From an uncultured Dehalococcoidia bacterium (GTDB lineage: Bacteria > Chloroflexota > Dehalococcoidia > Lucifugimonadales > CAJWER01), in NCBI GenBank assembly GCA_958296115.1, contig OY282442.1:1371158-1435157 (forward strand): a DNA stretch of 64,000 nt, in the 5' to 3' direction. Of the stretch, positions 3,603-64,000 are shown piece after piece (position 1 is the stretch's first letter; every line of letters starts with the position of its first letter). Below the pieces are notes generated by a model, which worked only from the letters and a program-made list of their open reading frames with translations, was not told the DNA's origin and did no database searches. The position numbers and the translations under genes are program-made.

Positions 3603-3608
3603 GGCGAA

Positions 3609-4646: not shown

Positions 4647-4733
4647 GTTGCAAGTATCGGATGCCAGGCTATTCCGTTAACCCAGCCTATCCTGAGTCCT
4701 CACGTTTCATCATACTGACCGCCGTCGGCCCGT

Positions 4734-5372: not shown

Positions 5373-5466
5373 GGCGCCTCCTGTATGCCGCCGAACAATC
5401 AAGCCCCGGCATTATAACAACTCGTCTGCTAGAATCCCCTCGTTCACGCGAACGGCGGAGGGACGC

Positions 5467-6021: not shown

Positions 6022-6120
6022 CCATCTGTCAATATAGGGCAGGACGAGGACTGGCGCTTCTCAGTTTGACCTGACTCTGGTTCTCACGTTGATAGTCGTC
6101 AACATAGGAGGCAATGCAAC

Positions 6121-6468
6121 ATGGGAATGTCTCAAGAACTCACGGTGACTCTGGTTCTCGCATTGATAGTGGTTAACATCATATGCGGGGGCTTCGCCTC
6201 GTTCGTGGCGAGCACAAAGGGCAGGGAGGGAGTTAGCTGGTTCCTCTTGGGGTGCCTCTTTGGGTTCATTGCGCTGGTGGCGGTGGGCCTTGCAGAACCC
6301 ATAGACCGGGCAAGGCAGTTGAGAGAGGAGCGTGACAGGTTGAACGAGGAGCAGGACAGGTTGAACGAGGAGCAGGACAGGTTGAACGAGGAGCAGGACA
6401 GGCGCGAGCGTGAAATGTGGAGGGAGGAGCAGGCGGAAAGGGAGGAGCGTGATAGGTTGAACGAGTAG
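6121..6468 (+). CDS. Small two-TM membrane protein with a charged EEQDRLN heptad-repeat tail
   Basis: 115 aa with two hydrophobic helices followed by REERDRLN-EEQDRLN-EEQDRLN-EEQDRRE. A GGAGG sits 10 nt upstream of the ATG. Confidence 0.55.
   Translation: MGMSQELTVTLVLALIVVNIICGGFASFVASTKGREGVSWFLLGCLFGFIALVAVGLAEPIDRARQLREERDRLNEEQDRLNEEQDRLNEEQDRREREMWREEQAEREERDRLNE
6325..6402. repeat. 21-bp in-frame tandem repeat (3.7 copies) gaggagcaggacaggttgaac
   Basis: Units at 6325-6345 (2 mismatches), 6346-6366, 6367-6387 and a partial unit at 6388-6402. A further diverged unit lies at 6442-6462. Confidence 0.85.
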
Positions 6469-6587
6469 AGGAGGTAGGAGGCGATTATGCCAAGAGGACC
6501 ACAGCGACAGAAGCGGTCCACCCTGTGGCGTGGCGCATCCCGCCCTTCTGGAACCTCCTCGTCGGCGCCGGCATGGCTAGGACGCCA

Positions 6588-7769: not shown

Positions 7770-7804
7770 TCCTGAACCCCTAATACACGCGCCATCACTT
7801 CCCC

Positions 7805-10294
7805 CTACAACCCACGCACCGCCTCTTCCAGGATAGCCGTCGCCTCCTCGTATGACGTCCCGCGAGCGAACGTGATGGGCTGGCCGAAGCGCACCTCCAC
7901 GTCGCCCCGGCGGAATATCGGGAAGCCCGTTGGCGAGCCGATGTTGCGGATATGCAGATTGATTGGCACGACCGGAATGCCCGACTCCACTGCCGCCAGC
8001 CCCGTCCCGCCCCTGAAGGACTTCATCGGCCCGCCAACCGTCAGCTCGCCCTCAGGGTAGATCATCGCCGACCAGCCGTCGTCCAGGATGCGCCCCATGT
8101 TCTCCAGGCTGGCGCGAACTGCGCCCCCCTTCGAGAACGGGAAGCCGTTGCCTATGAGCGGGTGCGTTACGCGGTACGCCGGATTGCGCCACATCTCCTC
8201 CCACGCCGCGATTGCCACCCTCCTCCGATGTCGCGCCGGCATGGCCTTGAGGATAATGCCGTTGTCGAGGCGCAGGCAGTGGTTCGCGGCGAATAGCGCC
8301 TGCCCGTCCAGCCCGGCGACGTTCTCCGCGCCCACTACCTTGAGCCGATACAGCCAGCGCAGCGCCGGGAAGATGACCACGCGCTGGATGACATCCCTCA
8401 GTGGCTTGCACCACCAGCTCATCCCCCAGCGCGGGAACTTCTTGTCCTCAGGGGCGCGCGAGCCCTGGGCGACCATCTCGGCGAGGGCCGCGACCGTCGT
8501 CCCCTGCTCCATCGCCGATTCGTCGAGATAGACCCCGAGATCCTCTTCGATTGCCGACAGGAGCTCCACGCGCTTCAGCGAGTCCATGTCCAGGTCGCCG
8601 TCCAGCGTCTTGCCCGCTTCGACCTGCGACACGGGAACCTCGGCCACCTCCGCTACGACTCCCTCCAGGGTGGGCGCGGCTTGGCCTGAGGGCTGCGGCG
8701 CCGACGCCTCCGGCTTGCCGCCCTCTGCGCTCGACAACATCTCGGCGAGCAGCGCCTTCTTGACCTTGAGGGTGTGCGTGCGAGGAAAATCCTCGTCGGG
8801 CCAGACTGTGAACCCGCGCACTCGCTGGTGTTCGGCGAGCTCCCCGTTGACCCATGCCACCGCGTCGGCGGCCTGCCCGGAGTCCGCCATGAGCAGCGCC
8901 GCGTGTACCTGCGGACCGGAGTCTCTGGGCAGGCCGACCACCGCGGCATCCTGCACCGCGCCGTGCTTCACCAAGGCGGCCTCGATGTCCTCGGGATAGA
9001 CGTTCAGGCCGCTTCCGAGTACTATCATGTCCTTCTTGCGCCCCTTCAGATGCAGGAACCCCCGCTCGTCGAACTCGCCCTGGTCGCCCGTCTTGTACCA
9101 GCCGTCCTCGAACGACGACGACGTAGATTCCGGAGCGTTCCAATAGCCCTGCGTAACGTTCTCGCCCCTAACCAGAACCTCGCCGTCGCCCGCTATCCTG
9201 ACCTCGACGCCCGGCAGAGGCGGGCCGGGAGAGTCGTAGCGTGGTGCGGTCTGGGGATGGCACGTGATGACGGGCGACGTCTCGGTGGCGCCGTAGCCCT
9301 GTATCACCTTCACGCCGAGGCGGTTCCACGCGGCTCCGAGGCCCGGGTCCAGCGGAGCTCCGCCCGCGAAGATGAAGGACAGCTTGCCGCCGAACCTCTT
9401 GTGTACCTGCCTGAAGAGCAGCCGGCGAAGGGGGAATGGCAGTCGCTCGGCAATCTTCATCAGCCTGGCCCACAGCGCTTCCTTGCCCTGCCGGCGCACC
9501 TCTCGCTCAATGCCCTTCATGAAGAGGTCGAGCAGCTGCGGCACCAGTATCATCATCGAGACGCGCCGCTCCTTCATCGTCCTGAACAACACCGTCGGCT
9601 GCCTCGCCGTCGGATATGTGACGTTCGCGCCGGCGGCCAGGGGCACCAAGAGGCCGCCCATCTGCTCGAGCATGTGGCTCAGCGGCAGAATGGACATCAG
9701 GCGGTCGGAGCTCTTGCCAGGCGCGGCCTGTGTGACGGACGCGAGGTTTGCCATGATGTTGCGGTGTGTGAGCATGACGCCCTTGGGGTCGCCCGTCGTC
9801 CCCGACGTGAACATCAGCTCTGCAAGGTCGTCTGGGCCTATGTCCATGCCGCGGGGCGAGGCCATACCCGCCGCAAGCCCCTCGAGCTCCTCGAAATCAA
9901 TCTCGGGAACGCCAAGCTCGGCGTGGTAGCGCGGCGTTGCGCGCGAGACGAACGACAACTTGGCATTCACCCTCGACGCGACGTTCTCCACGAAGTCGCG
10001 GGAGCTGCGAAGGTCTATCGGAACGGCAACGACCCCGGCCCGGAGGCACCCGAACATGGCGATGACCCACTGGGGACAGTTCGGCCCCCATATCAACGCG
10101 CGGTCGCCCTTGGTCAGCCCTCGCTCGTTCAGCAAGGCGGCGATTCGCCCGGAGCTGTCCCACAGGTCCGCGTAACTCCAGCGCTGGTATCGGAAGCCAG
10201 GCTTGAACAGCAATGCCGGGCGGTCCCCAAACTCGCCCGCGCAAGCCTGCAGGAAGTCCACCAGCGTCTTCTCGTTGGGCTTGTTCCCCGCCAT
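7805..10294 (-). CDS. Tri-domain acyl-AMP ligase - acyl carrier domain - lysophospholipid (PlsC-type) acyltransferase
   Basis: Adenylation motifs MFTSGTTGDPKGV, GYGATE, YKTGD and GRKKDMI. Carrier motif LDMDSL. Acyltransferase motifs NHCLRLD (HX4D) and YPEGE. The ATG at 10294 has an AAGGGGA RBS, and there is an alternative GTG start at 10309. Confidence 0.8.
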   Translation of the reverse strand: MAGNKPNEKTLVDFLQACAGEFGDRPALLFKPGFRYQRWSYADLWDSSGRIAALLNERGLTKGDRALIWGPNCPQWVIAMFGCLRAGVVAVPIDLRSSRDFVENVASRVNAKLSFVSRATPRYHAELGVPEIDFEELEGLAAGMASPRGMDIGPDDLAELMFTSGTTGDPKGVMLTHRNIMANLASVTQAAPGKSSDRLMSILPLSHMLEQMGGLLVPLAAGANVTYPTARQPTVLFRTMKERRVSMMILVPQLLDLFMKGIEREVRRQGKEALWARLMKIAERLPFPLRRLLFRQVHKRFGGKLSFIFAGGAPLDPGLGAAWNRLGVKVIQGYGATETSPVITCHPQTAPRYDSPGPPLPGVEVRIAGDGEVLVRGENVTQGYWNAPESTSSSFEDGWYKTGDQGEFDERGFLHLKGRKKDMIVLGSGLNVYPEDIEAALVKHGAVQDAAVVGLPRDSGPQVHAALLMADSGQAADAVAWVNGELAEHQRVRGFTVWPDEDFPRTHTLKVKKALLAEMLSSAEGGKPEASAPQPSGQAAPTLEGVVAEVAEVPVSQVEAGKTLDGDLDMDSLKRVELLSAIEEDLGVYLDESAMEQGTTVAALAEMVAQGSRAPEDKKFPRWGMSWWCKPLRDVIQRVVIFPALRWLYRLKVVGAENVAGLDGQALFAANHCLRLDNGIILKAMPARHRRRVAIAAWEEMWRNPAYRVTHPLIGNGFPFSKGGAVRASLENMGRILDDGWSAMIYPEGELTVGGPMKSFRGGTGLAAVESGIPVVPINLHIRNIGSPTGFPIFRRGDVEVRFGQPITFARGTSYEEATAILEEAVRGL

Positions 10295-10452
10295 GCGAGT
10301 CCCCTTCACCTAGGCTCTGGGGGCGCCTGCCTCTGAACGCGGCGTGGGCGCCGCAGCCTCGGGGTCCCCATAGTTCTCGTCCCATCAACTGGCATCATAC
10401 CAGACTCTACCACGCCCGGTTGCGCCGCGCGTCTCCTTCCACGAGGTTCGAT

Positions 10453-11172
10453 CTACGCCCTGGCAGCTGGCAGCCGCTCCACCAGCAGCTCCAGCTCGCG
10501 GCGCCCATTTGCCCTGAGCGGCTGGTAGTGGCTGAAGCAGATGGTGTCGAAGTCCAGCTGGAGAAGCTTGGCGAGGGACTCGTGCGCCTGGCGAACGTCG
10601 GCCGTAACCGCTTCGGACGGCGGGCCGAGCCTCCCGAAGCGGAACTGCATGGCGTCGCCCACGACGAGGACGCCCTTGCCGGGAATGAGCAGGCAGATGC
10701 TCCCCGGCGTGTGGCCGGGCGTATGCACAACCCTGACCTCTTCCTCGAAAGGCAGCGCCTCGCCGTCCTCCAAGCGTATGTCAACGGATGCCGCCCTGCC
10801 GTACAGCGCAGTTACGACGGGTCGCGTTACACCCGCAACGATTCGGTTCCTGTACGGGTCCGGCCTCGGCTTTGAGCCATCGATGAACCCCGCGTCGAGC
10901 CGGTGAGCCGCAACCCTCGCGTTCGTCCCTGCGACCAGCCTCTCAAGGCCGCCCACGTGGTCGGGGTGGTAGTGGGTAACGGCTATCACCGAGACCTGCT
11001 CCGGCCGTATTCCCAGCGCCTCGAGACCGGAGAGTATGAACCCGGCGCTGCCATTCCCGCCGGCGTCTATCAGGAGGGCGCTGCGCTCCGCCGCAAGAAC
11101 GGTAACACGCGCAGCTACTGCGTGTACCTGGTACAGCCCCGGCGCTACCTCTATCGGATTGGCGAGCTTCAA
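10453..11172 (-). CDS. MBL-fold metallo-hydrolase
   Basis: 239 aa with the metal-binding motif VTHYHPDHVGG and a later HTPGHTPG. Confidence 0.8.
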   Translation of the reverse strand: MKLANPIEVAPGLYQVHAVAARVTVLAAERSALLIDAGGNGSAGFILSGLEALGIRPEQVSVIAVTHYHPDHVGGLERLVAGTNARVAAHRLDAGFIDGSKPRPDPYRNRIVAGVTRPVVTALYGRAASVDIRLEDGEALPFEEEVRVVHTPGHTPGSICLLIPGKGVLVVGDAMQFRFGRLGPPSEAVTADVRQAHESLAKLLQLDFDTICFSHYQPLRANGRRELELLVERLPAARA

Positions 11173-11235
11173 ACCTTGCCCTGCCGTATGATACCACTGC
11201 GGATGGGCTGATTCAGGATAGTGTCATGGGGCAAT

Positions 11236-11303
11236 CTCCCCAAAATTGCCCCAAAATTCCCCCAGATCGCCCCTTGACACCGCGAGAACAGCCGTGCTAG
11301 TCT
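11236..11303 (+). promoter_or_regulatory. Sigma-70-type promoter with phased A-tract (UP-like) repeats, copy 1
   Basis: TTGACA at 11274-11279, an 18-nt spacer ending in TGc, and TAGTCT at 11298-11303. It is preceded by the ~11-bp phased units aaaattgcccc / aaaattccccc / agatcgcccc. The whole arrangement is conserved in the second copy. Confidence 0.45.
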
Positions 11304-11308
11304 AGTAG

Positions 11309-11748
11309 ACGGCCCGAAGGGGCGTACACCAAACGAGCACAGAACCACCTCTGCCAAATCTGGGCATTCATGCCGTCGCTGATGTTGGGACGGGACCACC
11401 TGCGGTATGAGAAGGTCCGGCTGTGTTTCGGCGCCTCGCCAGGAGGACGCAGTGCCAAATGCGTCTCCCCCGTTCCAGGTGCGGACTCTCGGACGACCGG
11501 GAGGACCGTAGCCAGCGCAGCCCGACGCCTTGGCGGGTGGAAGGACGAAGCGCGAAACGCAGGCGGTCCCGCAAGGGCCCGTCAGCCGTCCGGGAAAGTT
11601 AGAGGAGGGGCTGCACCCCCAATGTCGGCGGGCGATCGACGTCGGCATCCTCGAAGCAAGTACCGGAGTCACTGCCTTGCAAGGCAAACTCATCTCCCGC
11701 GAGAGCGGGGGAAACCAGGAGTAGACAGGACGCGGGTCCCAGACCCGC
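11309..11748 (+). ncRNA. Candidate ~440-nt structured ncRNA of unknown family, copy 1
   Basis: Non-coding interval immediately downstream of the promoter. Hairpins are capped by GNRA loops only on this strand: cucccgc-GAGA-gcggggg, ggtccc-GCAA-gggccc and cucucgg-ACGA-ccgggag. It ends in the hairpin gcgggtc-cca-gacccgc (11732-11748). A second copy lies at 50825-51265. Confidence 0.45.
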
Positions 11749-11751
11749 CAA

Positions 11752-12110
11752 GTACCCTCTCCCTCACGGGGGAAAGGGCCAGGGTGAGGGCAAACGCCCC
11801 GCCCTGCGTCCCCTCCCCCAAAGGGAAAGGGCTAGGAGACAAGGGCGATAAGCCCGCAAAAGGAGCCGACCGAGACGAAACGAACATAGCCGAAGGCGCC
11901 AACAAGGCCCCAGCCTTCATCACCCCTCTCCTCACGGGGGGAGAGACCCAAGGGTGAAGGCAATTCAGCGCGCCCGTCTTGTCCCCCCTCCCTTGACGGG
12001 AAAGGGATAGGGTGAGGGTGACTCCCCCTCGCCCCAAAAGGACCGCAGGCGGGACGCCTGCCACATCCCCTCTCCCCTGACGGATAGGGGCAATTCAGCG
12101 CGCCCGCCTC
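11752..12110. repeat. Array of REP-like palindromic elements (ccctctccc-N4/5-gggagaggg family), copy 1
   Basis: At least five degenerate hairpin units, for example 11921-11948 and 11981-12012, interspersed with gggtgagggtga modules. The array is homologous to 50470-50822 in inverted orientation. Confidence 0.75.
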
Positions 12111-12196
12111 ATCCCACGCTGGCGGGAGACACGTAGTTTGCCCTGCCGGGCGGACTGGACGAGGGGCCATTTAGACGTGATTGCCCCTGGATAGTG

Positions 12197-12799
12197 TCAC
12201 GGGTCGGATGGACCGGGTACCTCTACAGGCGGCTCGTCCCTGAAACGAAAAGACCAGGGGCCGTCAGCGCCGTCCGCCGGGGCATCGAAGATAGAGACCC
12301 ACGGCCTCGGCGCGCCGCCGGGTCTCAACAGCGCGGTCTCGGTAAGCTCGTAACCGCCGGGCGACTTGGCCCAGGCGGCGAGGCCAGACTCCGAGCTCCG
12401 CAGCGTCGCGCCGTCTGGCGTGGTCATCGAAAAGTCGTCCTGCGACACGCGGATATCTTCCCCGGAGCCGTTGGCGAGGACGTACCGCACCTCGACGAAT
12501 ACGCCTTCCGGCTCTGTTCCGCCTATATGAGGCAGGAGCCGGGCGCCGCTGACCGCTATCACAACCGTCGCTGGCTGCGGCGAAGCTGGCGGGGGGTCCG
12601 GTCCACCTGAACAGGCGACCGAACATGCCATAACCGCCGCGGCCAAAGCATGGGCTTGAGTGACGAATCGCGCGGTTACTCCTCGCCGAATCGGAGCACC
12701 TGCTGAAGTGAAAGCCGTCGGACCACGATAACGACGGCAGTGATTATCAACGTGAACGCTGCGACGATGGCCGCGTACGTCAAGGCAAGGGCCGCCCAA
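12197..12799 (-). CDS. Putative lipoprotein, DUF4352-like beta-sandwich (start uncertain)
   Basis: Signal-like RRGVTARFVTQAHALAAAVMACSVAC with a lipobox Cys, followed by a Pro-rich linker and a beta-rich domain. The only canonical start, ATG 12799, overlaps the upstream FtsX gene by ~120 nt, so the true start may be non-canonical near 12690. Confidence 0.45.
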   Translation of the reverse strand: MGGPCLDVRGHRRSVHVDNHCRRYRGPTAFTSAGAPIRRGVTARFVTQAHALAAAVMACSVACSGGPDPPPASPQPATVVIAVSGARLLPHIGGTEPEGVFVEVRYVLANGSGEDIRVSQDDFSMTTPDGATLRSSESGLAAWAKSPGGYELTETALLRPGGAPRPWVSIFDAPADGADGPWSFRFRDEPPVEVPGPSDP

Positions 12800-15700
12800 T
12801 CGACGTCGAGGGCGTAAGGCGGCAGGGCCCTGCCGCCGGTGTCGTCATGGCCGAGGAAAGTCATGATAGTCGCGCCCACCTGGCCGCCCATCCAGGTGCC
12901 CAGCGCCAGGCCTGCGACCACCATCAGGGCCTGCTCCAGCCAGACGAGCGTGGAAAGCTGGTTCATCGAGAGTCCGACGGCGCGGAGCAGCGCGAACTGG
13001 CTCTCACGCTCCCTGAAGGAGACGTAGGTGTGTACGAGGAAGCCGATGCAGCTCAGTATCATCACCGTGACGAACGCGACGTTCAGCAGGGCGCGCCAGC
13101 CCGCGTCCAGCAAGGGATCGACCTGTGTCGTGGCGAGGAGGGCCTCTCGGTCGTGGACGGTGGAGCTGTTGAAAGGCGAGACCCTGAGCCGCTCTGCAAG
13201 CTCGCTCCTGTCGGCCAGCCCCTCCTGGGTGACCAGCCACGCCTCGTTGGGCGCCACGATCTCCCCGTAGGTAGCCTCTATGTTCGAGACCAGGGTCAGC
13301 GACCCCAAGTCCGCGACGAGCCAGGGTTCCGCAACCGTATTCAACGTGGGGAAGTAGTCCATGGCGCCGGCGATGCGGACCGGCAGGCGACCGCCTCCTA
13401 CGGTTACGTCGAACTCGTCGCCAACCGAGTGTCCGGAGTCCTTCAGGAACCTTTCGGAGGCTAGGACGGACAAGGGCGAGATGGCCTGTCCGTGGTGAAT
13501 CCCCCTGCTCGTTCTGGGCATACCGCCCGCCCATGCGAAGAGCGCCGAGCCTCCACCCCCTTCAGCGGCGTTGGACGAGTGGCGCAACGAGTCAGAGACG
13601 GACTCTGAAGTAGTCTCCAGCGCGCTCCATCCATCCGTGCCGTCGAAGTCCTCCAGCGTGACCGTCTGCCCGGCGTCGGTAATGGCGCTGATTTCGTCTA
13701 TCAGAATCCAGCCGGGTTCGAGCTGCCTACGGTCGTTCCGTTCGCTCACCACGACCGAGAGCAGGCGAAGAGGCGGCACCGGTATGACCCACCGGTTGCT
13801 TGAATCGAAGCGCCTTCCGTGCAGGCTTGCCGACATCCGCGTCCATTCGGTCGCGGTGAGGACGCCGAGCGAGTACGAGAAGTGCCGGTCGTTCGCGTCC
13901 CGCAATCGGATGACCACCTCCAGCGATTCGTATGGCCGGTCGGCCCGCACCCTGGCGTCTATGTGGCTTGCGTCGAGAGGGACGGCGACCCCGTCCGGCA
14001 AGGGGGAGTGCTCTAGGGACGCAAGCGCCTCCTCCAATGGGACCTCGGCGAAGTCCGGGCGATGCCACGCGACGTCCGGGAAGGCGGCCGCGTCCACCGC
14101 CAGGATGTTGACCGGCTTGCCGGGGGTCGTGCTCAGGTCGAACGCCCTGCCCCGGTGCGCCGGCATGACCCTATCGATGCCCTCCACGTCCTCGTACTTG
14201 CCGGTGAATGGCGTGGTGAGGCCCCTCGGCTCCGGCAGGACGCCCTGGACCCGCATGTCGCTGCCCGTCGAGTAGAGCGCGCGCTCTTTGTAGTTGAGCT
14301 GCAGGGTTCCTCCCACGCTGGCGACGAAAACGCCGAGCCCCGCCATCAAGACCAGCAGCATGGACAGTCTGGCGTAATGCGTGGGGTTGCGCGCCATCTG
14401 CCACAGGCCCAGCGCAAGGCCGGCCGGGAGCCGGGTTGACATGAGCCGGCTCCCGAGCGACAGGGCAAGAGGCAATAGCCGCAGCAGCGCCATCGCCGAG
14501 GCGGTGAGCGCCAGGGCCGGCATCGCTAGGAGGACCTGGTCGACCACCGTCTCGCCAAACACATTCGTCGCGGCGATGGAGCCCTGCTCGGATAGCTGGC
14601 GGAACATGAGCAGCGCCGCCGCCAGGAGAGCCACGTCGAGATAGTACCTTTGGAACCAGGGTTGGCGCGCCGGTCTCGCCGATTCCTGGCGGTATCGAGC
14701 TACACCGGTCCTCGACGCCTGCACGGCCGGGACGAGCAGCGCGCCGAACGTGAGGAACGCTCCAAGGGCGCTCATCCAATATGACCCGCCCGATATGTTC
14801 ACCGGAAGAGCCGAGCCGCCCGTCAGATCCGAGAAGGCTGGCGTGTAGCCGAGCGAGCCTATTGCGAGCCCCGCAATCAATGGCCCCGCGAGCGCCGCCG
14901 CTAACGACAGCGTGGCTGCCTCGACCAGGAACACGGCGAGTACCTGGACAGACGTCGCTCCGCGGCTCCGAAGAAGGACGATTTCGCCGCGCTGCCGCGC
15001 CATGACCATCGAAGCGATCATGACTATGTAGTAGAGGATGACGATGACGATGAGGACCATTGCCACCAGCATCGGCAGCTTGGTGAAGAAGTGCCTGCGC
15101 TCGAAATCGCGCAGCGCGTCATCGAGGCCGGTAATCTGCTCATATGCGTAGAGGTTGGAGCCGAGCCTGTCGCGCAACACCCTGAGTCCGACGAGGGCGT
15201 CGAAGGAGTTGCGGGCGTTGAGCCGACCCCTATCCACGTCGAGGTGCCAGGCGTAGATGCTGTCGAGACGCGGGAACGACGGACCGAGCGCGTCGAAGTA
15301 GGTCTCTTCGGAGATGTATAGCTGGAGCGGCCGGAAGTTGATTTGCGTCCCGCGGAGCAGCACCCTCTCCCCCAGGTCGCGGAGCCCCGCGGCATCCTCG
15401 GCCGCGTCGAACAACCCGCTGATGGTCACCACGACGTGGGGAGTGGTCCCCTCGCTGACGGGAACGGCGGCGATGCGGTCTCCGGCGGCAAGGCCAAACG
15501 ACTCGGCCTGGTCAGCGGGAACGACGGCCTCCAGCGCAAGGGGCTCGCCTGGCGCGTTAAGTCTCTCGTCCCGGGGCATCCTTCCCCCGGAGCGGAGCTC
15601 CGCGCTGGTCTCCAAGCCGGTGATGAATACGAAATTCGCCCTGCCGTCGCTGTCCCAAGGGGACTCCGGGCTGTCGAGCTGGTCGGGAGTCGTAACCGCG

Positions 15701-50335: not shown

Positions 50336-50469
50336 TTTCGGAGTCCTGCCCAGTCCAATCTCTTAAACGGCTGCGCCTCTGAGAGGGTTAGCATGAAGAT
50401 TATCTGAAATCCAAGCCGTCCCGGTCAAGGATAGGGGAGAGTGTAGAGTGGTGAGTTAGGGAGGGGGAG

Positions 50470-50822
50470 GGATGCAGGCGGGACGCCTGCGGTCCTTTTG
50501 GGGCGAGGGGGAGTCACCCTCACCCATCAAGGGAGAGGGGACAAGACGGGCGCGCTGAATTGCCTTCACCCTTGGGTCTCTCCCCGTGGGGGGAGGGGTG
50601 ATGAAGGCTGGGGCGTTGTTGGCGCCTTCGTCTATGTTCGCGTTGTCTCGGTCGGCTCCTTTGCGGGCTTATCGCCCTTATCCTGGCCCTTCTCCCGTCT
50701 GGGGAGGGGGACGGGGCGGGGAATCGCCCTTGTCTCCTAGCCCTTTCCCTTCGGGGGAGGGGCGCAGGGCGGGGCGTTTGCCCTCACCCTGGCCCTTATC
50801 CCCCTTGAGGGAGAGGGTACTT
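50470..50822. repeat. Array of REP-like palindromic elements, copy 2 (inverted relative to 11752-12065)
   Basis: Collinear with the reverse complement of copy 1. It carries one extra unit (about 50660-50715). Confidence 0.75.
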
Positions 50823-50824
50823 GG

Positions 50825-51265
50825 CGGGTCTTGCGACCCGCGACCTGTCTACTCCTGGTTTCCCCCGCTCTCGCGGGAGATGAGTTTGCCTTGCAAGGCA
50901 GTGACTCCGGTACTTGCTTCGAGGATGCCGACGTCGATCGCCCGCCGACACTGGGGGTGCAGCCCCTCCTCTAACTTTCCCGGACGGCTGACGGGCCCTT
51001 GCGGGACCGCCTGCGTTTCGCGCTTGGACCTTCCACCCGCCAAGGCGTCGGGCTGCGCTGGCTACGGTCCTCCCGGTCGTCCGAGAGTCCGCACCTGGAA
51101 CGGGGGAGGAGCATTTGGCACTGCGTCCTCCTGGGGGGGCGCCGAAACACAGAGCGACCTTCTCATACCGCGGGGGCCCCGTCCCAACAGCAGCGGCGGC
51201 ATGAATACCCTGATATTTGGTAGAGGTGGGTCTGTGCTCGTTTGGTGTACGCCCCTTCGGGCCGT
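50825..51265 (-). ncRNA. Candidate ~440-nt structured ncRNA of unknown family, copy 2
   Basis: Reverse complement aligns with 11309-11748. By hand alignment the 3' ~260 nt are almost identical (3 differences) and the 5' ~160 nt differ at roughly 17 positions. The terminal hairpin loop is GCAA here versus cca in copy 1. Confidence 0.45.
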
Positions 51266-51270
51266 CTACC

Positions 51271-51337
51271 AGACTAGCACGGCTGTTCTCGCGGTGTCAA
51301 GGGGCAGTTTGGGGCAATTTGGGGGCAATTTTCGGGG
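51271..51337 (-). promoter_or_regulatory. Sigma-70-type promoter with phased A-tract repeats, copy 2
   Basis: On the minus strand: TTGACA (51300-51295), an 18-nt spacer, and TAGTCT (51276-51271). It is preceded by gaaaattgcccc / caaattgcccc / aaactgcccc. Confidence 0.45.
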
Positions 51338-51347
51338 TAGGCCGGGG

Positions 51348-51402
51348 AATCACCCTCACCCTGGCCCTCTCCCGTCGAGGGAGAGGGGAGAAGGCGGGGG
51401 GA
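51348..51402. repeat. REP-like palindromic element (single unit)
   Basis: gaatcaccctcaccctgg-ccctctccc-gtcga-gggagaggg-gagaaggcgggg. Confidence 0.75.
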
Positions 51403-51439
51403 GGGAGTGCAGGCGGGGCGGCTGCGGTCCTTTTTCTGA

Positions 51440-51468
51440 TTGACTCGGCAGGTCTAGCGGCATACTAT
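51440..51468 (+). promoter_or_regulatory. Candidate sigma-70 promoter of the type I R-M operon
   Basis: TTGACT (51440-51445), a 17-nt spacer, and TACTAT (51463-51468). It lies 64 nt upstream of the hsdM ATG. Confidence 0.5.
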
Positions 51469-51531
51469 TTGGGTTCAGGTTCGAGGGGGCTGTGAGCATG
51501 GCCTCGGCGAAGCGCGAGGGGGTTGAGCGCG

Positions 51532-53143
<1,612 letters not shown>

Positions 53144-53151
<8 letters not shown>

Positions 53152-53575
53152 GGCCATGCCACTTGAGTTGGACCACCTGAGGAAATCTATCCAAGCCCTC
53201 TCGGACCTGCTTGCGGTCAGCGACAACGACGAGCGCATGGGGCAGTTGAGCGAGGTCGAGCGGACCGGCATCCGCGCCGGCGTCATCAAGAACTTCGAGA
53301 CCACCTATGAGCTATCCTGGAAGCTGATAGCCCGCTGGCTGAAAACCCACGTCGGTTCCGAAGCCGACGGCGTAACGCGGCGTGAGCTATTCCGACTTGC
53401 CGCTGAAAATCGCCTTATCCCTGACGTGGACTTGTGGATGGGTCATCATGTCGCAAGGAACGACACCGCCCACGTATACGACGAGGGAAAGGCTGATCAG
53501 GTCTATAGAGCCACCATGGACTTCGCGCATGACGCGCGGCGGCTGCTGGAGATCCTGGAAGCGCGGAATGATTGA
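53144..53575 (+). CDS. HEPN-domain protein (HI0074 / nucleotidyltransferase substrate-binding family)
   Basis: 143 aa with the family-typical [13 protein letters not shown] and the Rx4H motif RNDTAH. The start overlaps the hsdM stop (ATGAATAG). Confidence 0.8.
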
Positions 53576-55172
53576 TCTCAACCCGAATCATCTTGTAACG
53601 GTCGAGGGCATCTTGGCCGAGCACGTGCCGGAGTGCGAGGTGCGAGCTTTCGGCTCCCGCGCGACCTGGACCGCGAAGGACTACTCGGACCTTGACCTGG
53701 CGGTAGTCGGCGGCGGGCCGTTGGACATGGGAAGGCTGGGACGCCTGAGGGAAGCCTTCCAGGAGTCCGACCTGCCCATGCGGGTGGAAGCGCTAGACTG
53801 GCACGCCGTCTCCCAGGGTTTCCGGGATGTGATCGAGCGGGGATACGTGGTAGTGCAGAAGGGGGCGGGAGAGTGGCGCGAAGTGGCGCTGGGGGGAATC
53901 GCCGAGATCAACGAAGCTACCTACTCCCCTAAAGAAGGCTGGCCGTTCGTCAATTATCTGGATACCGGGAATATCACCGAGAACCACATATCGGAAATTC
54001 AGCATCTCGTTACCGGCACAGATAAGATTCCGAGCCGAGCACGTAGAAAGGTTAAGCAGGGCGACATCGTGTATTCCACCGTGCGCCCCAACCAGCGGCA
54101 CTTCGGGTTGATCAAGGAAGTACCGGAAAACTTCCTGGCCTCGACGGGATTTGCCGTCATTCGTGGGAAGGCTGATGTCGCTTGCACGGATTTCATTTAT
54201 TGGTTCCTAGCGCAAGACCATGTAGTCGATTACCTTCATTCAATAGCAGAGAACAGCACGTCAGCGTACCCGTCTATCAAGCCTGGCGACTTGGAACAAT
54301 TGGTACTGCCCATGCCGCCGTTGGCCGAGCAGCGGGCGATTGCCCACGCGCTGGGGACGCTGGACGACAAGATTGAGTTGAATCGGCGGATGAATGAGAC
54401 GCTGGAGGGGATGGCGCGGGCGCTGTTCGAGTCGTGGTTCGTGGATTTCGACCCGGTGCGGGCGAAGATGGAGGGGCGGGATACGGGCCTGCCAGCGGAT
54501 GTCGCCGCGCTGTTCCCGGGCCGGCTGGTGGAGTCGGAGCTGGGGGAGATTCCGGAGGGGTGGGGGGTTGGGACGCTTGATGGTATGATAGAGTTGCTGA
54601 GTGGTGGCACCCCCAAGACGTCAGTTGTTGAGTACTGGGATGGGGATATACTCTGGTACACCGCTAAGGACGCTCCCAACCTGAGCGATGTCTTTGTCCT
54701 GGAGACTGAGAGGACCATAACCCAAGCCGGGATTGAGAACAGCGCCGCAAGAGTTCTTCCAGTGGGAACAACGACAATCACCGCCAGAGGCACTGTTGGT
54801 AGACTTGCCTGTCTCGGCATACCGATGGCTATGAATCAGACCTGCTATGGGATTCGCGGCGCTCACGGGTATCCTGATTTCTTCACCTATTGGAACGTGA
54901 GGACAGCTGTGGATGAGTTGCAACAGAGGACTCACGGCACGATCTTTGATACAATCACCCGTCAGACCTTCACCCTCATTGAGATGGCAACGCCGCCTGT
55001 AGAATTGGCGAAGGCATTCGAATCGACGCTGGGGCCTGTGATGGGGCGCATCCGCGGCAATCTTCAGGAATCTCGTACTTTGACCATCTTGCGGGATGCG
55101 TTGCTGCCGAGGCTGGTGTCGGGGGAGGTGCGGGTGGGAGAGGTAAATCGACCTGCGACAAGGAGTGCATAA
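53568..55172 (+). CDS. hsdS: Minimal nucleotidyltransferase (MNT) domain fused in frame to a type I R-M specificity subunit
   Basis: The first ~95 aa carry FGSRA...SDLDLAV (GS...DxD NTase motif). The rest is a two-TRD HsdS with the central conserved helix LAEQRAIAHALGTLDDKIELNRRMNETLE and the C-terminal LRDALLPRLVSGEVRV. The start overlaps the HEPN stop (ATGATTGA). Confidence 0.8.
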   Translation: MIDLNPNHLVTVEGILAEHVPECEVRAFGSRATWTAKDYSDLDLAVVGGGPLDMGRLGRLREAFQESDLPMRVEALDWHAVSQGFRDVIERGYVVVQKGAGEWREVALGGIAEINEATYSPKEGWPFVNYLDTGNITENHISEIQHLVTGTDKIPSRARRKVKQGDIVYSTVRPNQRHFGLIKEVPENFLASTGFAVIRGKADVACTDFIYWFLAQDHVVDYLHSIAENSTSAYPSIKPGDLEQLVLPMPPLAEQRAIAHALGTLDDKIELNRRMNETLEGMARALFESWFVDFDPVRAKMEGRDTGLPADVAALFPGRLVESELGEIPEGWGVGTLDGMIELLSGGTPKTSVVEYWDGDILWYTAKDAPNLSDVFVLETERTITQAGIENSAARVLPVGTTTITARGTVGRLACLGIPMAMNQTCYGIRGAHGYPDFFTYWNVRTAVDELQQRTHGTIFDTITRQTFTLIEMATPPVELAKAFESTLGPVMGRIRGNLQESRTLTILRDALLPRLVSGEVRVGEVNRPATRSA

Positions 55173-56029
55173 TGGCTTTGATACCGCCTTCTTTCCTGAA
55201 CACGGTTGTTGCTTTGGGAAGAGAGTGCCAAGATGGGACAGCCCGATACAACGCAACGGGTTTTCTGTATGGTATTCCCAGTGGTGATACCGACGAGAAT
55301 GGGAAAAATATGTATCACCCTTTCCTAGTAACTAATCGGCACGTGTTCGAAGGGATATTTAAGCATACTGATACACTGTGTGCGAGGTTCAACAAGCGCA
55401 CACAAATTGATGCAAATGTGTACACTATGAAAGAGGGAAATCGCCCATGGACTGTTCATCCGGATCCGCGCATTGATGTTGCGGTCTTGGAAATCGACTT
55501 AAATAGCTTAAGAGCCGACGGTATCGAATACGCATTCTTCCCGGGCGATACGCATGCACTTACGCTCGAGCAAGCCCGTAGCAGTGAGATCAGCGAAGGA
55601 GATGGAGTTTTTGTATTAGGATTTCCATTGGGGGACGCCGGAGATGAGCGGAATTATCCAATCGTGCGACAAGGAATAATTGCCCGTATTCAGAATTGGC
55701 TGAGGGGAGATGCACGTACATTCTTGATAGACGCTTCCATTTTCCCTGGCAACAGTGGTGGCCCAGTTCTCCTTAAACCCGAAATCGCTTCTATTCAGGG
55801 TACACAACGTAATGATAGATGCGTACTAATCGGCATGGTCTCTTCCTACCTACCATACCAAGAAGTTGCTATAAGCAACCAGACCGGACGGACAAGGATG
55901 ATATTCGAAGAGAATTCAGGGCTTGGCACCGTAGTGCCTCATGACGCGATACAAAAGACCATTAGAATCGCTGTTGATAATCTCAGTTCTAGCGAACGGG
56001 TTGCTGCTCCAGAAGAGCAAACCGAATGA
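55172..56029 (+). CDS. Cytoplasmic chymotrypsin-fold (S1, Trypsin_2-like) serine protease
   Basis: 285 aa with no signal peptide. Triad contexts are LVTNRHVF, IDVAVLEI and FPGNSGGPVL. The start overlaps the hsdS stop (TAATG). The gene is markedly AT-richer than its flanks. Confidence 0.75.
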   Translation: MALIPPSFLNTVVALGRECQDGTARYNATGFLYGIPSGDTDENGKNMYHPFLVTNRHVFEGIFKHTDTLCARFNKRTQIDANVYTMKEGNRPWTVHPDPRIDVAVLEIDLNSLRADGIEYAFFPGDTHALTLEQARSSEISEGDGVFVLGFPLGDAGDERNYPIVRQGIIARIQNWLRGDARTFLIDASIFPGNSGGPVLLKPEIASIQGTQRNDRCVLIGMVSSYLPYQEVAISNQTGRTRMIFEENSGLGTVVPHDAIQKTIRIAVDNLSSSERVAAPEEQTE

Positions 56030-56039
56030 AGCCTCCCCC

Positions 56040-56328
56040 ATGACCACCATCACCGAAGCTGACGTCGAGCGGGCGGCCCTGGAATGGCTGGCGGGTGGAG
56101 CATGGGCGAGACATCGCGTCCGACACGCCCGGCGCGGAGCGGGACGATTATGGGCAGGTCGTCCTGGAGGGGCGGCTGCGTGTGGCCGTGGGCCAGACCC
56201 GCCGCGCGGCCAAATTGCGGCGCATCGTCTCGAACGGGCGTGAGTCTTGCGCCCTCGCCGCCCTGCGTGATACACTGGCGCCGAGGCTGGTGTCGGGGGA
56301 GATACGAGTGAGGGAAATTGTGCCATGA
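56040..56328 (+). pseudogene. Chimeric relic: 5' fragment of an hsdR fused to the 3' end of an hsdS
   Basis: 56040-56190 aligns to the hsdR start ([19 protein letters not shown]... versus [19 protein letters not shown]...) with a ~13-nt deletion. 56215-56328 encodes ...[28 protein letters not shown], compared with the hsdS C-terminus ESRTLTILRDALLPRLVSGEVRVGEV. Confidence 0.8.
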
Positions 56329-56777
56329 CCTTGGGTCAGCAGGAATACAAGGCCATTATTAGCGATCCTAACAAAGTCATTCGTGAAAACATCCTTTGGG
56401 AGGGCAATCCCAATTCCACAAGCCGTGAATTCAGAATAGACGTCGAATCCGACGAGGGTTACCCCATTTTTGTAAAGGGCTGGTACAATTCCTCTTCAGG
56501 CAAGTTGTCCTACGCTATCATCCATCGCACCGTGGGCCGAATCCATGGCTTGGATTTGGGAGCAGACCACCGGAACCCGGATGGGAAATTGGTGGGCGAG
56601 AAGCACAAGCACCGCTGGGCGCCGGACTATCGGGATAAGTGTGCCTACGTGCCAGAGGACATTACCGAGACTTGGGACCGTCCAGTTGCCGTTTGGCGCC
56701 AGTTCTGCGCAGAAACGCGTCTGACCCACTCAGGCGCCATGCAGCCCCCTGTAACTCAAAGGGTATTGCCGCTGTGA
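56325..56777 (+). CDS. Hypothetical protein (150 aa) with a His-rich GADHRNPDG-x7-HKHRW motif
   Basis: Low-GC ORF. The ATG overlaps the relic hsdS stop (ATGA) and its own stop overlaps the next start (GTGA). I recognise no family. Confidence 0.6.
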
Positions 56778-57550
56778 ACGTCAACGAACTCTGCATATCC
56801 ATAGGGCAATCGCTGCCGCCCCTGTTTGAGTGCTCGCCGGCCCCGCAAGAGGGAGTACGGGTGCGTACGCCGCTGCTGTATCCCGACGGCGGAGTTGTTG
56901 ACGTTTTTGTACTGGAACGGGGCTACGGTTACACCGTTACCGACTTTGGGGATGCTCTGGGCTGGCTTGGATTGCAATCGGTAAGCAAGCGACGTTCACC
57001 CAAGCAACAATCTCTGGCGCAGGACGTGTGCCAAACGCTGCGCATCGAGTTGGTTCAAGAACAACTGGTTCTTCGCAACGTGCTGAACCATGCACTGGCT
57101 GAATCGGTGTTGCGGGTAGCTCAGGCCGCCGTGCGCGTCTCCGACCTGTGGTTCACTCTGCGGAGCCAATCCCTCCAGACAACTGCTGATGAGGTGGAGG
57201 AGTGGTTACGCGAGAAGCAGATTAACTATGAACGCGCCGTACAGAGACAGGGAAGATCAATGCACACCTGGACGGTCGATTTTGAGACCTACGCCAACCG
57301 CACCTCGCTCGTCTTTTTGCTAAGCACGGGCGCCCGTGGGGCGGCCCGTAGGTTGACTGAGCATGTTTTGTCTGGATGTATGGACCTGAACCACCTCAAG
57401 GCTACCCAACAAGGTCTGTACTTCATTTCCCTATTCGACGATACCGAAGACGTATGGCGGGAGGAGGACTTCAATTTGGTAAACGAGCAATCAGAAATCG
57501 CACGTTGGTCACATTCCGATGAGCTTGAGCGCCTCCTCAGGGCCGCATGA
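56774..57550 (+). CDS. DUF1828/DUF1829-like two-domain protein
   Basis: 258 aa from the GTG at 56774. The N-terminal pattern [38 protein letters not shown] resembles DUF1828. The C-terminal half ([21 protein letters not shown]) resembles DUF1829. The assignment is from memory of family patterns and was not searched. Confidence 0.5.
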
Positions 57551-57563
57551 TCGCCCTCACCGA

Positions 57564-60695
<3,132 letters not shown>

Positions 60696-60754: not shown

Positions 60755-63700
60755 TCATCTTAGCGACCTTCCGAACCCTCGTTTCCACGCGAAGGTTGTT
60801 CCAACCGTTACCACTGTCAATACTGCTGTCCCCGCCAACCCTAACAGCACAAGGAGCGGGGAGAAGCCGGTCGGCTCGGGCTCGGGTGATATTGTGGGTG
60901 TGGGTGGAGGGGGAGACGCAGTGGGAGATGGCGCGGCGGTAGGCGTAGCCGTGGGCGTTGCGGTAGGCGTGGGGGATGACGTAGGCGTGGGCGTCGGCGT
61001 GCCTGTAGGGGCAGGCGTTGCGGTAGGCGTGGGTGTGGGCGTTGCGGTAGGCGTAAGCGTGGGCGTTGCGGTCGGCGTAGGCGTGGGTGTGGCGGTCGGC
61101 GTGCCTGTAGGCCTGGGAGTTGGCACAGCCGTAGGCGTGGGCGTTGCGGTAGGCGTAGGTGTAGGCGTTGCGGTAGGCATAGGGGCAGGCGTGGCTGTAG
61201 GCGTAGGCGTGGGCGTTGCGGTAGGCGTGGGGGATGGCGTAGGCGTAGGCGTGGGCGTCGGCGTCGGCGTACCTGTAGGGATAGGCGTGGCTGTAGGCGT
61301 AGGCGTGGCTGTAGGCGTGGGGGTGGGAGTAGGCGTGGCTGTAGGCGTGGGGGTGGGAGTAGGCGTTGGAGTAGGCGTTGGAGTGGGTGTAGGCGTTGGT
61401 GTAGCCGCTGGCGCAGGCGCAGGCGCGGGCGGCGCGGGAAAGGTGAAGACAATCGGCGGCACGACCACCGGCGGCACGGTGTCGTTGTCGGTCAGGGTGA
61501 CCGTCGCCGAGCTCACCGTCAACCCGACGTCTGACGCGGTCGCCCCGTCCACCACGATGGTCTCGCTCCCCTCGACGATGGTGTCGTCGATAGGGATGAT
61601 GACGAGGGTGGACGTGCCGCTGGTCTCCGCCGCGTTGATGGTGACGTCGGTAGTCGTCGCCGTGTAGTCGGAGCCGCGGGTCGCGGTCCCCGAGAGGGAG
61701 ACGGTGACGGCGGTGTCCTCGGCGCGGGTAGCGCCGCCGTCCAGGGTGGCGGTTACGGTGGTAGTGGTGGCGGCGTCGGACTCGTCCAAGGTGGTTGGCT
61801 CCACCGACAGGACGATGTCAGTGGGCGTCGCGTCGTCGTCGGTGATGATGATGGTCACCGAGGAGGAGGCGCCGAGCGTTGGGGCTGGACCGCCGCCGCC
61901 TGTGGGGCTGGATATGGTGAAGGTGAAGCTCTCGCCGGTCCCTTCGTCTATTGCGTCCTGCGTGGTCTGCACGAGCACGCTCTTGTCCGCGTGGTCCGCG
62001 GGGGTGAAGGTCAGAGCGCCGGATGCGGCGGTGTAGTCGGTGGAGGTGGCCGTGCCGTGCGAGGTGGCGTAGGTCACCGTGAGGTCGGCGGTCGGGGTGA
62101 CTCCGGCAGGTGAGAGCGAGACGGTGGAGGTGGCGGTATCCCCCTCGTCCACCGACGAGGGGCCGGAGACGCTGACGGTGATTGGGTCGCTCTCGGAGAT
62201 GGTTACGGCTGCGGAGTCGGATGCGGTCACCCGGTCCGACAACGCGCTCGTCACCATGCCCAGCGTCACGCTGATGCCCTCCGCCGTCTCTGAAAGGCTG
62301 TCGTCGGTTATGGAGATGGTGAAGGTCTTGGTCGCCCCGGCCGCTGAGTTCGTCGCGAAGCTCACGGAGCCGGAAGCAGTGCCGTAGTCCGCCGCCGTCG
62401 CAGTGGTGGATGTGGCTGACCACTCCACCGCGACCGCCGCGTCCACCTCGTGCGAGAGGGTGACGGTGAAGGAGGCGCTTGCGCCCTCTGCCACGCTTGC
62501 CGCCGGGCCTGTGATGGAGAGGGCGGCGTTGTCGTCGTCGTTGAGGGTGACGGTGGCCGAGCTCACGGTCAACCCGACGCCTGCGGCGGTGGCCCCCTCG
62601 ACCACGATGGTCTCGTTCCCCTCCACCACGGCGTCGTCCGTCGGCGTAACCGTGAGGGTGGACGCGCCGCTGGGCTCCCCCGCTCTGATGGTGACGTCGG
62701 CAGTCGTCGCGGTGTAGTCGGCGCCGCGCGTCGCGGTTCCCGAGAGGGAGATGGTGACGGCGATGTTCTCGGCGCGGGTCGTGCCGCCGTCGAGAGATGC
62801 GGTTACGGTGATGTCCGTGGCGTCGTCGGACTCGTCCACATCGCTGGGGTTCGCCGACAGGTTAATGTCCGTGGGCGCGTCGTCGTCGTCGGTGATGGTG
62901 GTGGTCACCGAGGAGGACGCGCCGAGCGTTGGGGCTGGCCCGCCTCCGCCTGTGGGATTGGATATGGAGAAGGTGAAGCTCTCGCCGGTCCCCTCGTCTA
63001 TTACGTCATCGGTCGTCTGCACGAGCACGCTCTTGTCCGCGTGGTCCGCGGGGGTGAAGGTCAGAGCGCCGGACGCCGCGGTGTAGTCGGTAGTGGTCGC
63101 CGTGCCGCCCGAGGTGGCGTAGCTTACGGTCAGGTCTGATGTGGGTGTAACCCCGGAAGGCGAGAGCGAGATCGTGTATGTGGCGGTATCCCCCTCGTCC
63201 ACAGACGCCGGGCCGGAGACGCTGACGGTGATTGGGTCGCTGGCCGCTATGGTCACGGTTGCGGAGTCGCTGGATGCGGACACCTGGCTCGACAACGCGC
63301 TCGTCACGTCGCCCAGCGCCACGCTGAAGCTCTCGGAGGACTCCGAGAGGTCGTCGTCGGTGACGGCTATGGTGAAGGTCTGCGTAGCCCCCGCCGCTGA
63401 GTTGGCGCTGAAGGTGACCGATCCGGAAGCCGTGCCGTAGTCGCTCGTCACGGCGGTGGTGGACGTGGCCGACCACGCGACCGTGACCGCCGCGTCCACC
63501 TCGTGCGAGAGGGTGACGGTGAACCCCGCGTCGCCGCCCTCGCTCACGCTCTGCGTCGCCGGGGTGAGGGTCAGCGCGGCCTCGTCGAGCGGCTGCGGGT
63601 CAGTGGGAGGAGTCGGCGGGGCGTCCGCGTCTCCGTCGGTCAGCGTGATGGTGGCCGAGCTCACGGTCAACCCGACGTCTGATGCGGTGGACCCGTCCAC

Positions 63701-64000
63701 CACGATGGTCTCGTCGCCCTCGACGATGGCGTCGTCCGTCGGCGTAATCGAGAGGGAGGCGGTTCCGCTGGACATACCCGCGTCGATGGTGACGTCGGTG
63801 GTCGTCGCGGCGTAGTCGGCGCTGCGGGTCGCGGTTCCGGCCAGGCTGACGGTGACGACGGTGTCCGTGGCGCGGGTGGTGGCGCCGTCGAGGGATGCGG
63901 TTACGGTAACGTCCGTGGCGCCGTCGGACTCGTTCACCTCGCTGGGGTTCACCGACAGCGTGATGTCTGTGGGCGCGTCGTCGTCGTCGGTGATGATGGT
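60755..64000 (-). CDS. Giant Calx-beta repeat surface protein (5' end outside the window) with PT-rich stalk and C-terminal TM anchor
   Basis: Repeated Calx-beta modules ([18 protein letters not shown]...[16 protein letters not shown]). The reading frame continues to the window edge. The C-terminus has ~190 aa of PT repeats followed by [26 protein letters not shown]...KRGFGRSLR. Confidence 0.75.
60895..61450. repeat. Low-complexity Pro/Thr/Ala-coding microsatellite-like repeats
   Basis: Degenerate repeats of ggcgtaggcgtgggcgttgcggtaggcgt (coding strand is minus), translating to (TPTPTPTAT)n. Confidence 0.85.

Follow-up and report, generated by a model that had tools for sequence, protein, structure and literature searches.

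Introduction

The textbook abortive-infection effector embedded in a type I restriction-modification (R-M) operon is PrrC of EcoprrI (type Ic), the gene for which is located between prrB/hsdS and prrD/hsdR. Here, we describe a protease gene in the corresponding slot of a type I R-M operon from an uncultured Dehalococcoidia bacterium (contig OY282442.1, GCA_958296115.1). The analysed stretch of 64,000 nucleotides (nt) is called the window in the following, and all positions are counted within it unless a locus label precedes them. The gene encodes a stand-alone trypsin-like serine protease of PDC-S45, a family of candidate defence proteins. Like prrC, it is a single gene between hsdS and hsdR that is probably expressed together with the R-M operon. 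The two products differ in that PrrC is an ABC-ATPase-like anticodon nuclease, whereas the window protein has a trypsin-like domain only. Moreover, PrrC is hardly ever found outside type I R-M systems (Payne et al., bioRxiv 10.1101/2024.01.29.577857), while such an association applies to approximately 8–11 of 54 loci of the protease family.

Among phage defence proteases, Lit of prophage e14 is a zinc metalloprotease that is triggered by Gol of phage T4 and targets EF-Tu. Here the likeness is one of concept only, namely a single-gene abortive-infection protease that cuts an essential host protein upon encountering a phage peptide, and there is no homology between Lit and the window protease. 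In Hachiman, Avs, Lamassu and DRT modules, the known trypsin-like defence proteases carry a fused sensor (HamA, Avs, LmuA) and act by activating a pro-effector that is encoded next to them. With these modules, in which the protease is combined with an MBL nuclease, Pepco, EACC1 or an alpha/beta-hydrolase, the window protein shares the cytoplasmic trypsin-fold protease and, as a prediction, site-specific proteolysis in immunity. It differs in that its family lacks the sensor fusion, and none of the four kinds of pro-effector recurs beside it. A module of the trypsin-MBL type was rejected, as neither the partner gene nor the fusion is present.

The motifs TNxHV, DhAhh, (T/I)DAxIxPGNSGGP and GhGhxhP are common to the window protease and to HtrA/DegP/DegQ/DegS (S1C), and DegP, DegQ and DegS are its closest solved structures by sequence (E~1e-5). 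However, the window protease carries no PDZ domain, signal peptide or membrane anchor, has an extended hairpin (residues 218–256), and stays far below the NCBIfam cut-offs (degP_htrA_DO, 19.9 versus 416 bits; MarP, 28 versus 250). An HtrA-type quality-control protease was consequently rejected for want of a PDZ domain and an export signal. A weak hidden Markov model (HMM) similarity connects the core residues 52–202 with the protease of type XI retrons (RT-Protease_XI, E~1e-8; matched by 64 of 98 diverse relatives), but it is limited to the catalytic core, and the window protein has neither a reverse transcriptase domain nor msr/msd. Retron type XI was rejected because the reverse transcriptase is absent, and a prohead or structural phage protease because there are no phage genes in the context.

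The PDCs are 145 candidates that were predicted from their embedding in BREX, DISARM or type I R-M systems (Payne et al. 2024, bioRxiv 10.1101/2024.01.29.577857). DefensePredictor left them out as unvalidated. In a cold-seep study, four of eight PDC/HEC candidates protected against phage; PDC-S45 was not among the eight.

A divergent member of PDC-S45

The protease gene and its catalytic codons are located as follows.

55172–56029, plus strand: stand-alone chymotrypsin-fold serine protease, PDC-S45 subfamily, 285 amino acids (open reading frame (ORF), Pfam, PADLOC, alignments and AlphaFold2 (AF2) model)
55340–55342, plus strand: His57 codon (motif TNRHVF)
55475–55477, plus strand: Asp102 codon (motif IDVAVLEI)
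55754–55756, plus strand: Ser195 codon (motif GNSGGPVL)

PADLOC-DB places the protein in PDC-S45 (PDLC05022) with E=4.6e-31, residues 19–269 being aligned to positions 29–285 of the 293-position profile, which corresponds to 88% of both the protease and the profile. This corrects a first-pass annotation of the same DNA, which was made from the sequence alone and could assign the protein to no named defence family. All 98 of 98 diverse relatives match the same profile at E~1e-31 to 1e-36. Since a member on a Sinorhizobium prophage scores 4e-94, the window protease and its relatives, mostly from Chloroflexota metagenome-assembled genomes (MAGs), form a divergent subfamily. They agree with PDC-S45 in the full-length HMM match, the single-domain trypsin-like architecture of about 290 amino acids and the single-gene organisation without an obligate partner, and as in that family, members are either embedded in type I R-M operons or occur as solo or prophage copies. 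What sets them apart is the divergence of the clade, and the family itself has the status of a candidate only. The window gene hence adds a divergent member to a candidate family that had been catalogued before, and the prediction that an R-M-embedded protease might serve in defence is already in print. Beside PDC-S45, RT-Protease_XI was the only other PADLOC match.

A trypsin-like peptidase domain is the sole Pfam domain of the protein (Trypsin_2, E=9e-14, passing the gathering cut-off of 27.6 with 52.8 bits; Trypsin, E=1e-5). A search of 5.8 billion proteins returned 2,634 homologues, the best at 72% identity and E=1e-125, with the best non-identical matches at 60–72% identity and all of approximately 285 amino acids. 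A representative library of 1.84 billion proteins contained 5,251 homologues. Because of these numbers, the ORF is regarded as a real conserved gene and not as a chance reading frame. Among the 333 relatives in the representative library with E<1e-30, nearly all have 265–300 amino acids and an alignment that starts at residue 1, and none is part of a larger architecture.

The first-pass annotation had described a 285-amino-acid protease with an intact His/Asp/Ser triad, and the triad is indeed retained on alignment. H57, D102 and S195 are without variation in 43 of 43 close homologues, as are the N-terminal motif MALIPP..VVALG and the C-terminal motif RMIFEENSGLG..VP, and the triad is complete in His-Asp-Ser order in 97 of 98 diverse representatives at 36–64% identity. 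The single exception, P0243 from the representative library, carries H57Q and S195R with D102 kept and may be a pseudo-protease. That the triad numbering 57/102/195 matches the chymotrypsin numbering is a coincidence.

Hydropathy, N-terminus, Pfam and NCBIfam all agree with the earlier statement that the protein has no signal peptide, transmembrane segment or PDZ domain and is not a periplasmic protease of the HtrA type. The maximum Kyte-Doolittle mean over 19 residues is 1.13, which leaves no transmembrane segment, and no signal peptide is present, lysine and arginine being absent from the first 10 residues so that there is no basic N-region. According to the AF2 model and the alignment, the MALIPP..VVALG N-terminus corresponds to the first, conserved strand of the fold and not to a leader. 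No PDZ domain was matched in Pfam, and in the AF2 model nothing follows the protease domain apart from one helix. The model (pLDDT 80, pTM 0.81) shows the two beta-barrels of the chymotrypsin fold followed by this C-terminal helix. Residues 218–256 form an unusually long, conserved beta-hairpin that carries an SxQTG tip and the EENSGL motif (AF2 model and alignments). A Foldseek comparison of the model, which had been proposed with the first-pass annotation, recovered the double-barrel fold of the PA clan and no closer placement: plasmin, thrombin and plant Deg1 in the PDB were found with a probability of 1.00 and a TM score of ~0.5 only, and neither the PDB nor the BFVD viral models held a close structural relative, the matches being generic for the PA clan and including 3C-like proteases of RNA viruses. 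The protein is thus an intact, conserved, cytoplasmic, stand-alone serine endopeptidase with a PA-clan fold, for which peptidase activity is predicted from its sequence.

Genomic context and mobility of the protease gene

We surveyed one genome per species, which yielded 54 protease loci, and added six further contigs with close homologues. The 54 loci stem mostly from Dehalococcoidia/Chloroflexota MAGs, and the remainder include Verrucomicrobiota, Latescibacterota, Nitrospirota, Acidobacteriota, Actinomycetota and Proteobacteria. A clear embedding in a type I R-M operon with hsdS upstream of the protease was found in 8 of 54 loci (L001, L003, L004, L009, L016, L021, L024 and L025), although no hsdM or hsdR was detected in L021 and hsdR is split in L024. 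Three of 54 are partially associated with R-M genes, the protease being situated just upstream of hsdM in L008, and L045 and L054 being degraded. All six additional contigs (6/6) are embedded in type I R-M operons. The plain order hsdS-protease-hsdR occurs in L004, L016 and L057–L059 and, with one extra gene, in L056. In most embedded loci, the spacing between hsdS and the protease gene is −25 to +25 nt. Protease homologues are therefore strongly over-represented in the hsdS-hsdR slot, but they are not confined to it. The neighbourhood survey suggested by the first-pass annotation consequently has a mixed outcome: enrichment beside type I R-M genes is seen (8–11 of 54 loci, 6 of 6 contigs), but most homologues reside among housekeeping genes.

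No conserved partner gene accompanies the protease across the 54 loci. Within three genes on either side, SoFic, PD-Lambda-2, PDC-S19, HEC-01B, PDC-S09, NucC, RmrA, DrmC, PDC-S22, MzaA, RT_UG29 and PD-T4-3 occur once each, and ThsB_TIR recurs four times. It directly follows the 3' end of the protease gene in L003 (10920–11823), L014 (10868–11780), L026 (10857–11243) and L027 (10850–11236), and it is found ~0.8 kb 3' of the protease in L060 (9669–12129), so that embedded and solo loci are both represented overall. ThsB_TIR has no PADLOC match at 1e-5, and in L003, L014 and L060 it is followed by an 8xMP membrane protein.

The guanine-cytosine (GC) content of the protease gene is 0.476, whereas the window averages 0.657 and both hsdM and hsdR have 0.67. 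The gene is foreign DNA, as stated in the first-pass annotation, which had also called it AT-rich. In 40 of 49 loci the protease has a lower GC content than its flanks, with a median difference of −0.108. Identity between homologues from Chloroflexota, Verrucomicrobiota, Latescibacterota and Nitrospirota amounts to 50–68%, and a PDC-S45 member is present on a Sinorhizobium prophage. The protease is horizontally mobile. A full-length match links the family to phrog_7688 (E=1.6e-26), and a tblastn search of 50,697 phage genomes (INPHARED) revealed no homologue of the protease. Matches on plasmids are remote (25–30% identity). Two of these remote homologues, on the unrelated Acinetobacter plasmid NZ_CP084304 (L061, 4620–6714) and Kocuria plasmid NZ_CP013255 (L062, 5061–6795), with ~25–28% identity, are each located directly 3' of a small serine recombinase gene.

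Within the Chloroflexota-centred clade of a neighbour-joining tree, solo copies are interspersed with embedded ones, and the deeper branches are all solo. In two Latescibacterota loci (L028 and L036, ~9903–9956), the hsdS-3'-like peptide SHTLAIMHNVLLPKMVSG is encoded ~45 nt upstream of a solo protease. The match is weak (E=0.001 in a 50-kb search) and hints at a derivation of these two copies from an R-M-embedded ancestor. R-M scars beside solo copies form no general pattern, these two weak matches being the only ones.

Organisation of the R-M operon and its stacked cassettes

The remaining features of the operon are listed below.

51523–53151, plus strand: hsdM, type I R-M methyltransferase subunit (Pfam HsdM_N and N6_Mtase, E=3e-106; PADLOC MTase_I, E=5e-221)
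53120–53575, plus strand: NTase_sub_bind / HI0074-type (HEPN-like) gene between hsdM and hsdS (PF08780, E=7e-30; TIGR01987, E=2e-19)
53568–55172, plus strand: hsdS with an in-frame N-terminal MntA-like nucleotidyltransferase (MNT) domain (start uncertain; the ORF opens at 53382)
55160–55174, plus strand: junction of hsdS and protease gene, with Shine-Dalgarno sequence AAGGAG (55160–55165), hsdS stop codon TAA (55170–55172) and protease start codon ATG (55172–55174), as read from the sequence
56040–56196, plus strand: relic of the hsdR 5' end (codons ~1–57), frameshifted by a 14-nt deletion; direct repeat of 57564–57734
~56221–56328, plus strand: relic of the hsdS 3' end; direct repeat of 55090–55141 (tblastn, 61% over 33 amino acids)
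56325–56777, plus strand: PDC-M24A (DUF6978), first gene of a second cassette (PADLOC, E=1e-60; PF22398, E=2e-14)
56774–57550, plus strand: PDC-M24B (DUF1828), second gene of the same cassette (PADLOC, E=1e-81; PF08861, E=1e-7)
57564–60695, plus strand: hsdR, full-length type I restriction subunit (Pfam HSDR_N, SWI2_SNF2, T1R_D3-like and T1RH-like_C; PADLOC REase_I, 1079 bits)

The order is accordingly hsdM, HEPN-like NTase_sub_bind gene, MNT::hsdS, protease, hsdR relic, hsdS relic, PDC-M24A, PDC-M24B and hsdR. As the first-pass annotation had noted, the protease gene begins on the hsdS stop codon, the last A of the TAA being the first base of the ATG (TAATG), and AAGGAG lies 6 nt upstream, inside hsdS. 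It had also noted the hsdR relic that follows the protease, while the hsdS relic and the second cassette behind it were overlooked. Its deduction that the gene originally sat exactly between hsdS and hsdR is supported by this relic and by living loci with that arrangement (L004, L016, L057–L059 and L056).

The 157-nt hsdR relic is 84–91% identical to the 5' end of the true hsdR (blastn, 81% over 155 columns). A repeat search detected it as two repeats, D2 (91%) and D1 (84%), at distances of 1524 and 1538 nt, in agreement with tblastn. The ORF of hsdR opens at 57519, and alignment to the relic and to homologues identifies the ATG at 57564 as the true start. The hsdS relic is likewise visible at the DNA level (blastn, 81% over 47 nt; repeat D3, 79%). 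Both relics share one frame in a chimeric ORF of 77 amino acids (56095–56328), the TGA of which (56326–56328) overlaps the ATG of PDC-M24A (ATGA), an arrangement by which the second cassette may have retained translational coupling. This unrelated gene has the stop/start overlap as well, in its case with the hsdS relic, and the close coupling to hsdS therefore seems to stem from the slot and not from the protease.

The window operon thus contains two stacked cassettes, each of which is bracketed by imperfect direct repeats. Relics of the hsdR 5' end, at times together with the hsdS 3' end, were also found between cassettes in L001, L003, L024, L025, L055 and L060.

L001: relics at 11000–11071 and 12127–12282
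L003: relics at 8566–8703 and 9776–9943
L024: relic at 10970–11050
L025: relics at 10873–11091 and 12658–12762
L055: relic at 8876–9007
L060: relics at 6836–6910 and 10971–11051

Loci with the protease alone between hsdS and hsdR (L004, L016 and L057–L059) contain no such relics. Most simply, the order hsdS-protease-hsdR would represent the ancestral unit, to which later cassettes would have been added by recombination between type I loci. The same slot holds unrelated genes, namely SoFic, SIR2, DUF4238, ThsB_TIR with 8xMP, PIN and PDC-M24, of which all but SoFic were noted with the stop/start overlap as well. The most extensive case is L060, a Dehalococcoidia-type contig, in which ~11 kb of cassettes separate hsdS from hsdR (5034–15642) and comprise SIR2_2, DUF4238, the protease, two ThsB_TIR+8xMP pairs, YopA, PIN and DUF4365. 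Here, a single R-M operon encloses a large defence island.

Several further observations concern the remainder of the operon and its flanks. The fusion in hsdS is evident from two Methylase_S domains together with Polbeta/NTP_transf_2 (Pfam), from Specificity_I (PADLOC, E=2e-102) and from MntA_antitoxin (NCBIfam, E=3e-5), and an MNT::hsdS fusion is likewise called as a single gene in L055 and L060, where the stretch with the preceding HEPN-like gene covers 5694–7987 and 2989–5041, respectively. The PADLOC Specificity_I model PDLC03138 also spans the MNT part of the fused HsdS. Judged by these domains, the HEPN-like gene and MNT::hsdS look like a type VII toxin-antitoxin pair, the antitoxin half of which would have been absorbed into the specificity subunit. 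The PDC-M24A/B pair is also encoded in L014 (2671–3896) at 65–70% identity, ~6 kb from a solo copy of the protease. Downstream of the operon, a minus-strand ORF of 1,065 amino acids (60755–63952) with repeated modules of ~330 amino acids, an extended tract rich in Pro and Thr, and a hydrophobic segment at the C-terminus looks like the gene for a large repetitive cell-surface protein. Upstream, the ~1.2 kb between ABC-transporter genes and hsdM (50336–51522) revealed no convincing ORF, tRNA or Rfam match. The AT skew of this gap is strongly negative, and it may represent the left edge of the inserted R-M island. The locus as a whole contains no Rfam families or tRNAs, and scans for promoters and terminators gave nothing usefully above chance.

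Discussion

We favour the view, with a probability of roughly 0.55, that the gene encodes an autonomous, horizontally mobile protease of a defence type that rides in a cassette hotspot. The single-gene cassette sits in the passenger slot between hsdS and hsdR, translationally coupled to hsdS. In this scenario, the slot would be a recombination hotspot in which cassettes are swapped or stacked via the conserved hsdS 3' and hsdR 5' ends, and such exchange would leave the truncated hsdR-5' and hsdS-3' scars that now form direct repeats around each cassette. The protease may be latent or highly specific until infection, upon which it could cut either a protein of the phage or an essential one of the host and thereby lead to an abortive-infection-like outcome for which the R-M enzyme would not be needed. 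The defence role is suggested by a slot that is common to known defence genes and by the protection that half of the tested PDC/HEC candidates conferred elsewhere. Autonomy is indicated because embedded and solo copies interleave on the tree, and the protease more probably works independently of the R-M enzyme than as a PrrC-like guard. The first-pass proposal of an R-M-linked effector or sensor is weakened accordingly by the cassettes that share the slot, by the prevalence of solo homologues and by the interleaved tree.

A number of points weigh against this view. Approximately 60–70% of the reference-genome loci have no recognised defence gene within three genes on either side, and the usual neighbours are genes for tRNA synthetases, DNA polymerase III subunits, glutamate dehydrogenase, acetyl-CoA synthetase and other housekeeping or metabolic functions. 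In one Dehalococcoidia clade (L011–L015), the protease is syntenic and equal to its flanks in GC content, a pattern that would also fit a domesticated, non-defence role. Neither a sensor domain nor a partner or trigger is identifiable for the protease, and it has no evident inhibitory element, so that a constitutive cytoplasmic protease would need unusual specificity. Co-transcription with the R-M operon is probable, the evidence for it being gene spacing and the lack of a good terminator. Lastly, we found no report of an experimental test of PDC-S45 in the literature.

A bolder version, which we advance only tentatively and consider doubtful, holds that the bare protease of ~280 amino acids is a complete one-domain immune system that works without a sensor domain or partner. 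It would have to recognise a phage protein directly, possibly via the hairpin 218–256 and the invariant N-terminus, and then cleave a phage or host target. As a variant modelled on PrrC, the R-M-embedded copies may additionally guard the type I enzyme.

The explanation that fares best among the remaining ones, although we deem it unlikely, is that of a non-defence passenger, that is, a mobile or domesticated cytoplasmic protease with a regulatory, quality-control or mobile-element-derived function that landed in an insertion-tolerant hotspot. It would account for the housekeeping surroundings at most loci, for the syntenic, GC-matched copies in L011–L015, and for the remote plasmid homologues, which adjoin small serine recombinases and not defence genes. 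However, most slot-mates in L001, L056 and L060 belong either to toxin-antitoxin modules or to defence genes, known or candidate, and the persistently low GC content and the spread across phyla are typical of defence cargo. In addition, an R-M embedding of ~20% of loci should far exceed that of a random family, the background rate here being our own estimate.

A PrrC-like guard appears improbable. Here, the protease would be made in step with HsdS and silenced by the HsdM/S/R complex, to be released once a phage anti-restriction protein disables the enzyme, whereupon proteolysis would kill the cell or block the phage. The position in the hsdS-hsdR slot, which is that of prrC, is consistent with this scheme, as are the TAATG overlap with the Shine-Dalgarno sequence inside hsdS, the narrow spacing in most embedded loci and the embedding of all six close metagenomic relatives. 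In contrast to PrrC, however, the majority of the protease family does not adjoin R-M genes, and solo and embedded copies are interleaved in the tree. L003, L056 and L060 moreover have other cassettes between hsdS and the protease, and the overlap of PDC-M24A with the hsdS relic suggests that the coupling belongs to the slot.

In Escherichia coli, restriction alleviation involves the degradation of HsdR by ClpXP. That the protease might similarly regulate its R-M system, by degrading HsdR or another subunit in a new unmethylated host or after DNA damage, would fit its position directly upstream of hsdR in the simple loci and its arrival with the operon as foreign DNA, but is very improbable given that solo copies without adjacent R-M genes predominate, that the protease is kept where hsdR is called in fragments (L024, L055, L057 and L059, some of which could be explained by assembly errors) and that there is no link between the protease sequence and the Hsd proteins.

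The uncultured Chloroflexota of the window clade were presumably not part of the RefSeq set behind PDC-S45. That this divergent clade shows the same embedding in type I R-M operons lends added support to the prediction of a defence role from embedding. Our analysis adds that the family is always stand-alone and without a partner, and it adds a picture of cassette stacking that is based on scars. The hsdR-5' and hsdS-3' scars provide a concrete picture of cassette exchange in R-M operons and are possible markers for further passenger cassettes. Should PDC-S45 proteases protect their hosts, no simpler protease-based immune module would be known, and it would become a new question how a bare protease detects infection and spares its own cell. 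If the bare protease is a complete immune system, it would be the first serine-protease defence of the stand-alone kind.

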